A stretch of DNA of 64,000 nucleotides, taken from NCBI RefSeq assembly GCF_056746865.1, contig NZ_CM163382.1; one strand, 5' to 3'. How positions within the stretch are numbered: the first letter of the stretch is position 1; each line of letters opens with the position of its first letter. The notes beneath the pieces are model-generated. The model did no database searches. It had not been told where the DNA came from and worked only from the letters and a program-made list of their open reading frames with translations. Both the position numbers and the translations under genes were made by a program. Shown here piece after piece: positions 18,950 to 29,334 of this stretch.

Positions 18950-19505
18950 AATAAATCCTGTACCATCGTTGGACTCTCCCTCCAAAAGTTGGACATCCAA
19001 CTGATTAAGGTTAGTTTTTATGGCAAAGCCAAAATATTTTCTCTAAACCGAATAAGCTGTAGTTAATCATTATATTGCCGGACACGATGGTACACGTCGT
19101 ACCGCTGAACGTTTTGGTGTTGAAGAAACATCAGAGCGATGCTGGGTCAAGGGCTGGCAACTCCACGGTATTGATGGTATTACATGGCAAAATGACCGCG
19201 GCTCTCCTGAGTTTCGACTGACAGTTGTCCTGAAGGTTTGAGTGAAGAACTTACCATGCGCTAGGCCACTACACAGTTTAATATATCAAATGAAACCATT
19301 ATCTGGCACTGGGTGAAGGTTTACAAAGATACTGGTGAAGAAGGACTTATGAACATAAAACCAGGCCGGAGCAAGGACATGACAAAACTGTCACGAACGG
19401 CGCAAAAGTGGCTCTTCCTTGGATGTATCTCTATATTTTCATACATCTGTTATCACTTAACCTGTTACTGTCCTTCAAACGCAGGAGATTCAGGGGGCCA
19501 GTCTA
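18950..19505. mobile_element. IS3-family (IS150-group-like) orfA remnant with frameshifts, ending in an IS2-like terminal fragment
   Basis: Fragments ...VVNHYIAGHDGTRRTAERFGVEE... and ...WVKVYKDTGEEGLMNIKPG...; GGAGATTCAGGGGGCCAGTCTA at 19483-19504 equals the IS2 end. Confidence 0.45.
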
Positions 19506-20084
19506 ACCGCTAAGAACATGTTCCCGAAAATTGAGATAAACACGTTATGACAGCAACGTAAAATAAAACAGCGTTTTTTAGTCATAATGAACATGTAGAG
19601 TCCGTTTGTTCATACTCTGTGATTATCTCCATACGTTCATCTCTGGCGCTGCCAGATAGCGTTTTCGTTCTTACAGTCAATGCGCACCCGATACTGAATA
19701 TCGGCTTTCTTCCCCCGGGCGGTGAGATGCACTGTGACTAAATTATCACCTTTACTTACCAGCTCACGAAGATTCACCCAGACAACAGGATGCTGCTGAC
19801 TGAAGATCACCTAGTCATCTTTCCAGTGAAGCACCTGTTTCTGGAGATAGTCCCGTTTGACGCTGGCTGCAACAGCCGATGATTCCTGCCCTTCACATCG
19901 TGGAAAACTGACGGTTCTGTTTTTATCAGTAGCCAGTGATGATACACAAATACCGAAGGTGAGCAGAATTGAAGAGAGTGTTTTGTTTATTTACAGAACC
20001 CCATCATGGATAGCTCATTGTATTATTACTTTACATTTTAACAACATAAAATATCACTTTCAGAAGCAACAATCACATAACTTC

Positions 20085-21197
20085 TTATCCATTATTAATC
20101 ACCTTATACAACGGGAGCATCGCCGCGCCGCATGACGCACTCTGTGCTCCCATCGAAGAGGCAGCTAACTTCACTCTGGGGCGGTTGGGATCGAGGCAGG
20201 CTTCCATCAGTTGATTCAGTTCCTGCACCAGACGACTGATAATCGGTTTCGGCATCGCGCCACCGAGTACGATGATTTGCGGGTCTACCCACTGCACACA
20301 GCTGAAGAGCGTCTGCTCCACCTGGCCACGACAGCGTTCAAACCAGCTTTCCAGCAGTGGGTGCTGCCCGGCTATCAGCTCCGGTAGCTTAGTTTCACTG
20401 AATCCTTCACGCTCCAGTGTGGCAAGCAAATCCTTATACGACGGGCGCGGTGTACCGGATGGAAACGCCATCCCGACTTCACCGGCATTGCAGAACCCGC
20501 CGCGTAGCATTTTATTCCCGGAGATAATACCCGCGCCGATACCGTAGCCAAGGTCGATAAAGGTTAGATCGCTGTACGCATTCCATTTGCCGCTGTACAG
20601 TTCACCTACCGCCGAGGCGTTGGCATTATTTTCCACCCACGTCGGCCACGGCAGGTTGTCGGCAAACGCCTGCTGGAGATCTACCTCACGCCAGCTCTCC
20701 AGCCACGGTACGCTGTGGCGCTTGCGACCATCCGCTTTCAGAAATCCGGGCACTGCATAGCCAATGCCGAGAATACGTGCGTGCTGGAGCTGGCGCTTTT
20801 TCAGCATTTTCTCCACCAAGGTTTTGATCTGCGCGAGAGAGGCCTCCAGTGGCTGATTCTCCTGATGTGCTTCGCAAAGCGACAGCAGCTGGCGACCACT
20901 GAGATCGACCACCGTCATATCGATAAAACCGGGACTGAACGACAACCCGATAGCACAACCGCCGCCGGGGTTAAGGCGCAACGGCAGCGACGGCTGGCCG
21001 CGCTGCCCGGTATTGCGCTCCCCTTCCACCACCAGGCCGGAGAACATCAGCTCTCGGCACTGTTGGGTGATCGCCCCCGCCGTCAGTCCCGACAGCCGTG
21101 CCAGTTCAGCCCGCGTCACCGGGGCGTGGAGACGGATCAGTTCCAGCAGCAGGCGCTGCGAACCACGTAGTTCAAGGCGTTCAGAGTGGGCGTTCAT
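20085..21197 (-). CDS. ROK-family transcriptional regulator (NagC/Mlc-like)
   Basis: 370 aa with N-terminal HTH and ROK sugar-kinase-like fold motifs. Confidence 0.75.
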   Translation of the reverse strand: MNAHSERLELRGSQRLLLELIRLHAPVTRAELARLSGLTAGAITQQCRELMFSGLVVEGERNTGQRGQPSLPLRLNPGGGCAIGLSFSPGFIDMTVVDLSGRQLLSLCEAHQENQPLEASLAQIKTLVEKMLKKRQLQHARILGIGYAVPGFLKADGRKRHSVPWLESWREVDLQQAFADNLPWPTWVENNANASAVGELYSGKWNAYSDLTFIDLGYGIGAGIISGNKMLRGGFCNAGEVGMAFPSGTPRPSYKDLLATLEREGFSETKLPELIAGQHPLLESWFERCRGQVEQTLFSCVQWVDPQIIVLGGAMPKPIISRLVQELNQLMEACLDPNRPRVKLAASSMGAQSASCGAAMLPLYKVINNG

Positions 21198-21212
21198 GGT
21201 GTCCTTATTTTT

Positions 21213-26868: not shown

Positions 26869-27093
26869 TCAGTGTTTTATTACCTTAATCTTTTTACGGC
26901 ATTCTTCAGCTCTTGCGCATGCTATTTTTTCACCTGTTTCATAACATTGCTGGCAGCCTAATCCAAATTTCATCGCCATATCATAACCTTCCCGAAAACC
27001 TCGGAACCACGCGTTACGAAGGTATTCATCATATTCCCCGCAGTCAATAATAACCATTTTATTTTCATGGGATTTTCCGGTATTCTCACTCAT
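26869..27093 (-). CDS. hypothetical small Cys-containing protein (74 aa)
   Basis: ATG at 27093 with GAGG RBS; five Cys; no family recognised. Confidence 0.3.
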   Translation of the reverse strand: MSENTGKSHENKMVIIDCGEYDEYLRNAWFRGFREGYDMAMKFGLGCQQCYETGEKIACARAEECRKKIKVIKH

Positions 27094-27934
27094 TTTCGAT
27101 ACCTCAATGCTTACAACAGAAAAGTATACTTTTACGAAGTTCGCCTTTGCAGGACTATATAAAGTTATCACTGGATGCAAGAGCCGGAAATCCTGTATAT
27201 CAGGATCAACTTTGTAATTCAATAACATATTATCCAGTGAAAAAGTAAGTATATTTAAGCTGGGGAAGGAGAAGGGGGACTTGATTTGATATTTTCATCA
27301 ATAATATTATTTTTCCTCCTCCATTATTCATTCAGACCTGGTTCCGGGCGTAATTCCGATTTCTCTGTTGAAGCGATGCATTTATATTTAAATATTCACC
27401 TGTCATTGAATTTTATTTGAAATAGGAGAAAATCTCCTCCTGTACTACAGATAACCCGGAATGTTCCTCGAAAGAAAATTCTGGCGCAGAATTCACGCCC
27501 GGTTCTGTTCAACATCATGCAGGATAACGATACCGAAACGTTAAACTCTGGCAATTCTCGTGTTATACACAGGCAGGAGTGATTACTACGGTAAGAATTG
27601 CTGAAAAGGGGAGAACACTGAAGGCCTTATTCGCGAAGAATAAAGGAGACATTTCATGTAAATTATTATCAGAGATAACCTTCTCCAGGCGCTTTTGTTC
27701 GCTTCCTGAATTGCTACCTGATACATATTTACGGGATGCCAGCCTGGTGACTATAACTCCGAAAAGACCGATTATTGTATTGCGTGCATCCGGCATGTTT
27801 ACAATGTACGCTGGTATCTAACGGAGTCTGACACAGATGCACGCAGGTGTATATTTTAACGTAATTATCCGGAAAGAACAGTATATTTTAATGCGGGAGT
27901 TGCATGAGCGGTATACGGGAGAAACTATCAGACC

Positions 27935-28800
27935 ATGGGAGCTACAGAGGTGCTTAAGTCTCGTAACATTATAATCTGCTCACCTGACTGGTGCTATTCT
28001 CACCTCAACACCAATGCACAAATAGCCTGGCTTATCGTTAATAAAAGTTACTCATACCGGGAATCCAGTGAAGCTATGAATGTCGGTTCCTATACACTGG
28101 GGGCATGGGTACGTCAGCTCAGGCGGGAACGTCAGGATACCACGTCTTCTGCATCACCACTCACATCAGAGTAGCAACGTATTCATGAGCTGGAAAAGCA
28201 GGTTCGTCGCCTGGAGGAACAAAAAACGATATTAAAAAGCTACAGTGCTCTTGATATCCTCCCCACTGAACGGTTTACGATAGTTACCAGACTGAGCGGC
28301 GACACACGGTTGTCAGTCTTTGCGCTGCTCTGGATGCTCATTGCAGCAGTTCCGGCACTGGCAGAATCGGCTCAATACGATTGATCCGGCGCGAATCAAA
28401 TTGTATAGCGAAACAGTCCGGGTCTGGAACCAGAGTCGGGGTTCCGCAGGTGCGCGTGCTCTGGCAGATATGCTGATTCAAAATGGTATCCCGATGAGCA
28501 GTTATCGTGCCAGGAGGCTGATGAAGCATCTGAACCTGAGAAGTGCTCAGCCCGGAAAATATCAGTACAAAAATGCCCGCCAGGAGCATACCAGCCTGCC
28601 GAGTCTGCTTGAGTGTCGGTTTTCTGTGCTGGAGGCCGAGCAGGTATGGATTCTTAAATAAACCTCGAGTCTGAATCGGTAACCAGCTGTTATATTCTGA
28701 ATTATTACAATAGCGTCAGGCCTCATAATTACACTGTGGGTTGACGCCGGAAGAATCAGAGAACAGATACCGTTCTTACTGTAAAACGTGGCTAATATTA
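27935..28800 (+). pseudogene. IS3-family transposase remnant (frameshifted, internally deleted)
   Basis: OrfA-like ...LRRERQ... and coiled-coil IHELEKQVRRLEEQ, OrfB-like ...AEQVWI... and ...YNSVRPH... in different frames. Confidence 0.45.
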
Positions 28801-29334
28801 ATTGAGCACTGCAGTGTTCAGAGCACAAAGAAGAAAAAAGATGTGTGCGAATGCCTGTAATGTGTTAAAAGAATGTTCCGCGTTTCCGGTACGCTTTTCG
28901 TAACTAACAATGCAGGGTGACGTAACGCTGGTTGTGCCGGAAACGCGTCCCTCCCCCTATCTTTCCTGTTTGGATTTGCCCCTATATTTCTGGATTATCC
29001 GACAAAACCGGCGTGAAGTATTACTCTCGTCGCCCAGCACCATAAGGATAACGCCCATAAAATCATGAAACTTTTCTTCCAGATTGGATACAATCAGGCC
29101 GAAACGGTGATGAATATTATCCAAATCTGATGGTTCGTAGCGTTTTCAGCCCCCAGATTCTGAGTTGCCTGTAGGGATGATTTCAATTCCCGATTTGTCT
29201 ATCGCATAGAGAAAAAGAATTTCATTTCTGTTCACCAGAACCCATGTAACCCACTCCAATTCGTTATTTATCTCACTGATTGCCCTTCATTTATCTCATT
29301 GATGCACCGAAAGGTAAAACTGCCATCCGGTGCA

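Follow-up and report, generated by a model that had tools for sequence, protein, structure and literature searches.

IS2 sequences in the window

We analysed a stretch of 64,000 nucleotides from Escherichia coli (contig NZ_CM163382.1 of NCBI RefSeq assembly GCF_056746865.1; the whole stretch is called the window in the following) for sequences derived from the insertion sequence (IS) IS2, a member of the IS2 group of the IS3 family. The window represents a mosaic chromosomal island of E. coli; when 5426 complete E. coli genomes were searched, 28 of them were found to contain the whole of its part from 19000 to 20000. It contains one intact IS2 and, at two other sites, remains of IS2-type ends: an element of 86 base pairs (bp) that has both termini and almost no interior, and a stump of 20 bp that represents a right end (Table 1).

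A functional IS2 is about 1331 bp long and carries between its ends orfA and orfB, connected by a programmed -1 frameshift. The intact copy, which was used as the in-window reference, has this length, both open reading frames (ORFs) and the duplication GAATA on both sides; its orfA and orfB pass the curated cut-offs of the NCBIfam models 'IS2 repressor TnpA' and 'IS2 transposase TnpB', respectively, and an ungapped alignment of its sequence with the IS2 of strain K-12 MG1655 shows 95.8% identity. Because orfA and orfB lie on the minus strand, the end that reads TGGATTTGCCCC is the right inverted repeat (IRR, ...CA-3') and the end that reads ...GGGGGCCAGTCTA is the promoter-proximal left inverted repeat (IRL). 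The copy is missing in the otherwise collinear strain CFSAN061770, which has an empty site there, and it therefore represents a recent insertion. When the intact IS2 was compared by BLAST to the whole window, IS2-like sequence above noise was found at the two sites mentioned above and nowhere else.

A preliminary description of the window, made from the letters, had listed two strings as solo IS2 terminal fragments scattered in the region: a 22-mer (GGAGATTCAGGGGGCCAGTCTA) and a 21-mer (TGGATTTGCCCCTATATTTCT). Both strings are real, but they lie one and two bases further to the right than was given, at 19484-19505 and 28971-28991 (both read on the plus strand), and each matches the window a second time at one of the two ends of the intact IS2 (42590-42611 and 41281-41301, respectively). 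In 100 dinucleotide-preserving shuffles no match was obtained for the 22-mer or for the 21-mer, which excludes chance; the second match is nevertheless one base shorter than claimed (20/21), as bases 1-20 agree with IS2 and base 21 is a T where IS2 has a C. The identity to IS2 is in register with the termini of the element for the 22-mer (22/22), the 20-mer (20/20) and a longer arm that adjoins the former (44/54). As had been described, no IS2 genes adjoin either string, and the RefSeq records have no feature annotated under either match. 'Scattered' amounts to two sites plus the intact copy. Judged from these sequence comparisons, we consider it confirmed that both fragments are genuine IS2-derived debris without transposase genes and not chance similarities.

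Table 1. IS-related features of the window, with the flanks of the 86-bp element
Feature	Position	Strand	Remarks
IS3-family orfA-like fragment, decayed	18982-19388	+	stops and frameshifts; two weak HTH_28 matches
Left flank of the 86-bp element, 31 bp	19389-19419		common to versions A and B (sitD-linked), not C
Internally deleted IS2-like element, 86 bp	19420-19505	- (IS2 orientation)	both termini, no ORF
Diverged IS2 right end, 54 bp	19420-19473	-	IRR side, TGGAT... terminus
Filler TTCAAACGCA, 10 bp	19474-19483		at internal deletion junction; not recognisably IS2
Outer 22 bp of the 42-bp IRL (GGAGATTCAGGGGGCCAGTCTA)	19484-19505	-	22/22 identical to IS2
Right flank of the 86-bp element, 22 bp	19506-19527		common to versions A, B and C
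IS911-like IS3-family remnant, not IS2	28030-28814	+	left-truncated; ~380-bp internal deletion; own right terminus ~28812
Terminal 20 bp of IS2 IRR (stump)	28971-28990	-	20/20 identical; left edge is the exact IS2 terminus
Intact IS2, 1331 bp	41281-42611	-	in-window reference
orfB of intact IS2	41292-42197	-	
orfA of intact IS2	42155-42565	-	
Target duplication GAATA, 5 bp	41276-41280 and 42612-42616		of intact IS2

Structure of the 86-bp element

The 22-mer is not a solo end, since a diverged opposite IS2 end is found 10 bp to its left; the 20-mer at the second site, in contrast, does have one end only. The two ends of the 86-bp unit are in their normal relative orientation and about 1245 bp of the interior is gone. 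The IRR-like arm is identical to the in-window IS2 at 44 of 54 positions (E = 6e-9, BLAST within the window). The ends of IS2 require a cleavage domain of 11 bp and also an inner domain that binds protein, within an IRR of 41 bp and an IRL of 42 bp, and the IRR is the sole donor end of the element (PMC3299598). The 86-bp unit matches 34 of the 41 bases of the IRR and 7 of the 11 bases of its outer cleavage domain, and it has 22 of the 42 bases of the IRL, of which the inner 20 bp are gone. Most of the inner binding domain is missing both from this piece of the IRL and from the stump (20 of 41 bp). Neither the unit nor the stump contains a transposase ORF, and the unit is not flanked by a 5-bp target duplication (TTCCT on the left vs ACCGC on the right). 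We infer that the unit and the stump are both incapable of transposition.

Genomic contexts and distribution of the 86-bp element

The occurrence of the unit was surveyed in the 5426 complete E. coli genomes, with inspection limited to the best place in each. It was recovered at 113 places in 61 genomes, all of them chromosomal and with up to four places per genome; a search of plasmids yielded none that contained it. The inspected places fall into three genetic contexts: A) between the gene of an AbgT transporter and a YebF-family pseudogene, which is the arrangement in the window and which occurs twice in some genomes because the island segment is duplicated; B) between sitABCD and an IS1 fragment (strain SMS-3-5, locus L004); and C) between the gene of cytochrome b562 and a YebF-family gene (strain F11, locus L012). 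The architecture of the unit and its internal junction (...CCTTCAA-NN-GCAG...) are the same in the three versions, whereas the sequences as such have diverged (identity 90.8% for A/B, 79.5% for A/C and 81.8% for B/C). The identical internal junction implies that there was one internal deletion, which occurred before the versions diverged.

The sequence shared by the versions extends beyond the unit. The stretch common to A and B corresponds to window positions 19389-19527 and ends 22 bp beyond the right edge of the unit, where IS1 interrupts B; the right flank common to A and C reaches window position 20090, through the YebF-family gene, with 89.7% identity. Outward from the terminus of the IRR, version C has an unrelated left flank. 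Flanks that are shared in this way (the right one by A, B and C, the left one by A and B) point to inheritance by segment duplication and not to insertion. The unit was also sought outside the complete E. coli genomes: two exact-word scans of about 100,000 species-representative genomes, one with the junction core and one with a core that is common to A, B and C yet distinct from IS2, returned no copy of it, and a scan of 241 million metagenome records yielded six contigs with the unit, of which three belonged to context A, two to B and one to C, with no fourth context among them. As no new flanks appeared in the genome and metagenome scans, the unit is better described as one old inherited scar than as a proliferating miniature element.

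The identity of the IRR part to IS2 is 81% for version A and 89% for version B, and for that reason the parent of the unit may have been an older relative from the IS2 group rather than IS2 itself. The full-length relatives that were considered as owners of the diverged right end, namely IS2-group elements on Salmonella, Klebsiella and E. coli plasmids (L007-L009), were rejected, as they are 78-85% identical and match no better than IS2 does. The supposition that earlier IS2 copies had been removed by deletion therefore needs rewording for this site: IS2 debris is indeed present, but the 22-mer is the end of an 86-bp element that has lost its interior only and that would stem from an old IS2-group element.

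Directly to the right of the unit, the YebF-family pseudogene (19637-19990, minus strand) has an internal stop; the annotation of its diverged paralogue in strain F11 (version C), about 90% identical in DNA, describes a YebF-family gene that is intact though short.

Breakpoints around the 86-bp element and the GF43 recombinant

Both strings had been placed near IS3-family remnants, and this is the case: the decayed orfA-like fragment lies to the left of the unit and the IS911-like remnant to the left of the stump. The homology of the relatives of the orfA-like fragment stops at 19388, 31 bp before the unit and exactly where the segment common to A and B begins; the unit is thus not nested in this fragment. 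Nesting had been considered as a candidate explanation and was rejected on this ground and because no sequence spans the joint with the unit excised. Three breakpoints could be derived by comparison around the unit (19388/19389, 19419/19420 and 19527/19528). The proposal that the fragments mark old rearrangement breakpoints is consequently borne out by the clustering around the first piece, but no breakpoint was seen comparatively at the 20-mer at 28971.

Strain GF43 carries sitD and a B-type left part of the unit joined to an A-type right part, followed by YebF, ROK and phosphodiesterase genes. The switch from B to A lies within the IRL part, and this is the sole copy of the unit in GF43. The simplest reading is that an A copy and a B copy recombined to give the arrangement in GF43, along a putative pathway. 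With regard to reciprocal junctions, which the preliminary description had proposed to look for, this A/B recombinant is the only one that was found, and the 20-mer has no partner junction. On this reading about 140 bp of decayed IS debris would be enough to serve as a crossover point.

The 20-bp stump and its module

At the second site the homology to IS2 ends after base 20. The stump is interpreted as a truncated IS2 end, since the exact IS2 terminus is present on the left and the homology is gone after base 20, a conclusion drawn from structure. A segment of 201 bp around the stump, including both flanks, was recovered from 225 E. coli genomes (163 chromosomal and 107 plasmid places) with at least 97.5% identity, and among these genomes there was no variant without the stump, with a full IS2 in its place or with a single flank. 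Plasmids of other genera likewise yielded no such variant. The pre-insertion state of the stump is thus not recoverable from the genome and plasmid collections that were searched.

The stump lies within a module of 10.3 kb (window 27732-38080) that is 99.87% collinear with plasmid pEND_Eco 18055 of avian-pathogenic E. coli (L006 7853-18201) and that is conserved at 99.9% on both plasmids and chromosomes of avian-pathogenic E. coli. On pEND_Eco 18055 the module is bounded by IS1, of which the window has a copy at 39853-40620. The module constitutes a paralogue of the yah cluster and encodes: a LysR regulator, an ankyrin protein, a DUF2877 protein, FdrA, a DUF1116 protein and a carbamate kinase. 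As the junction is invariant in the 225 genomes, the truncation would be older than the spread of the module.

No coding sequence that resembles a transposase lies to the right of 28990. The IS911-like remnant, about 155 bp away and about 79% identical to its full-length relatives, was considered as the owner of the 20-mer and rejected, because it has its own right terminus at about 28812 and belongs to a different group of the IS3 family. A gene truncated across the breakpoint at 28991 was another rejected candidate: a 55-aa ORF (28957-29124, minus strand) that runs through the stump has no family assignment and gave just a sub-threshold and irrelevant Pfam match. The approximately 345 bp between the stump and the LysR gene (28991-29334) have no homologue outside the module in the collections that were searched. 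A pyrimidine-rich motif precedes both IRR termini (ctcttcct|TGGAT, motif at 19412-19419, and ctttcctgtt|TGGAT, motif at 28961-28970), and several unrelated IS2 copies on plasmids also match over about 7 bp upstream of the terminus; the motif may reflect a target preference of IS2, or coincidence.

Origin of the two remnants

Taken together, both features are very probably inert remnants of the IS2 group that differ in age: the 86-bp unit would be an old gutted element, and the 20-bp piece a stump. The sequences, their boundaries, the contexts of the copies and the fixed state of the junction are observed; the order of events and the way in which the deletions arose are inferred and can be pictured as follows. 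An old IS2-like element would have lost its interior once, and what remained were a decayed right end of full length, the filler of 10 bp and no more than the outer 22 bp of the IRL. The gutted element, together with the DNA to its right (toward the YebF-family gene), would then have reached three or more paralogous contexts in islands, between which a divergence of 9-20% has built up. Later cuts would have occurred nearby: by IS1 on the right in version B, by different DNA that came to abut the IRR terminus in version C and, in the window, by the IS3-family fragment that lies 31 bp left of the element. At present the element would act as a short patch of homology only, as in the GF43 recombinant. 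At the second site an IS2 would have inserted and then been deleted from its base 21 onward, together with some of the flanking DNA, before the 10.3-kb module spread among plasmids and chromosomes of avian-pathogenic E. coli.

Several observations do not fit easily with this history or leave parts of it unaccounted for. The 22-mer of the IRL is identical to IS2 at all 22 positions, yet within this copy the IRR part reaches just 81% identity; such unevenness may be due to chance or to gene conversion. For neither remnant was an empty site found: a query from which the unit had been excised found no sequence that joins 19419 to 19506, and for the stump neither flank was found without the other, be it in the E. 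coli genomes or in plasmids, whatever their species. The history of insertion followed by deletion is for this reason derived from structure alone. The left flanks of A and B part from that of C exactly at the terminus of the IRR, which could mean that this end was active at some time after the interior had been lost. A rare fourth context could be present among the 113 places, as only the best place of each genome was inspected.

The exact position of the flank break is also the main reason to consider that the unit might be a miniature inverted-repeat transposable element (MITE), mobilised in trans by the IS2 transposase now or formerly, and that its contexts arose by transposition or by rearrangement mediated by its ends. 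The unit is non-coding and of small size, its two IS2-type termini are correctly oriented, it occurs at up to four places per genome, active full-length IS2 is present in the same islands, and the end at which version C departs from A and B is the only donor end of IS2. On the other hand, the versions do not occupy independent sites but have the right flank in common, and A and B have the 31-bp left flank in common as well; a target duplication is lacking; contexts beyond A, B and C were absent from the inspected genomes and from the six metagenome contigs; where several places in one genome were inspected, they proved to be duplicated segments of the island; and the unit is left with 22 of 42 bp of the IRL and 7-9 of the 11 bases of the IRR cleavage domain. 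Proliferation as a MITE was discarded as well, with nothing in the two scans of species representatives and only A, B and C in the metagenomes. We consider the MITE explanation decidedly unlikely, and we see equally little chance for the more specific proposal that the gutted element stayed a substrate in trans of the IS2 transposase, at least at the IRR, so that the flank break would record a transposase-mediated rearrangement. Were it true, an IS2-family MITE would have been caught at very low copy number, and only in that case would the element touch on an open question of transposition biology.

It is highly improbable that the two fragments are the inward ends of two direct IS2 copies that once bracketed the 9.5 kb from 19506 to 28970 as a composite transposon, with the outer parts deleted later. 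The arrangement would be appropriate, as an IRL terminus is present on the left (19505) and an IRR terminus on the right (28971), both oriented as in the intact copy, but the remnants are unlike in age and identity (81-89% for the IRR part of the unit vs 20/20 for the stump) and in distribution (61 genomes for the unit vs 225 for the 20-mer). The left remnant moreover retains its own IRR, and in that respect represents a whole copy that was gutted rather than an inner end. The composite transposon was rejected in particular because the module boundaries in other replicons do not fit: those at 27732 (on plasmids, bounded by IS1) and at 19389 (in GF43 and version B) miss 19506 and 28970. Chance similarity, or an unrelated element with ends that resemble IS2, has next to no probability: although the 20-mer is short and the sequence next to it begins again with TGGATT, it is ruled out by the shuffles and by the fact that the matches begin exactly at the IS2 termini, and also contradicted by the E-value of the 54-bp IRR-like stretch within the window, by the lack of transposase-like coding sequence to the right of 28990 and by the plasmid-borne full-length relatives, the nearest ones to the unit, that resemble it no better than IS2 does.

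Inert debris of two ages thus being the preferred explanation, the remnants can be compared to systems that are known. They are like the IS2 of E. coli in the outer part of the IRL (22/22), in the first bases of the IRR (20/20) and in the IRR arm, which can be aligned over 54 bp, and they are unlike it in size (86 and 20 bp vs 1331 bp) and in the lack of orfA, orfB and a target duplication. MITEs that derive from an IS by internal deletion have reportedly been described in Pseudomonas syringae; the 86-bp unit is similar to those in being small and non-coding, with two IS ends and the interior missing, but it differs in that it has no duplication and no independent sites, that its copies have flanks in common and that the greater part of the transposase-binding domain is missing from one end. 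The unit resembles a MITE precursor that never spread. The stump, which forms typical nested debris together with the nearby fragments of IS911-like, IS1 and IS3-family elements, is reminiscent of the solo or truncated IS ends that are found at the junctions of modules in pathogenicity islands and ColV-type plasmids, with the difference that it lies inside a conserved module of 10.3 kb rather than at a junction that is variable at present.

Both remnants are in that sense ordinary IS debris of a well-known kind, and the initial idea that a rearranged region holds old IS2 debris turns out to be broadly right and wrong in detail, and hence partly supported. The value of the finding lies mainly in annotation, as labelling such remnants helps to reconstruct how the island and the plasmid modules of avian-pathogenic E. 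coli were assembled; the 86-bp element is in addition a handy marker of the three paralogous modules and of the GF43 recombinant.

Intact IS2 copies and other features of the islands

Full IS2 copies that had inserted independently were encountered at other positions of the same island family: one at the equivalent of window position 20016 in the second island copy of strain 135 (97.2% identical; L002 3596-4927) and one at the equivalent of about 27912 in GF43 (99.8% identical; L020 8651-9981). IS2 is evidently currently active in these lineages, and its polymorphic intact copies contrast with the fixed and decayed remnants.

The empty site of strain CFSAN061770 falls within a gene that is annotated as 'sigma factor-like helix-turn-helix DNA-binding protein' and that is located beside a YadA-like adhesin gene. 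Given that position, the IS2 copy of the window probably disrupts this sigma factor-like gene. A further stretch of about 1.33 kb (42866-44202) is missing from CFSAN061770 and includes an ORF (43036-44154, minus strand, 372 aa) that scores above the cut-off of an NCBIfam model of IS4-family transposases; it represents another IS that was inserted recently, next to the IS2. The neighbouring YadA-like adhesin ORF (44242-46062, minus strand) contains a tandem repeat of 99 bp at 44810-45384 (5.8 copies, 98% matches), and as the gene is shorter in CFSAN061770 the number of repeats differs between strains.

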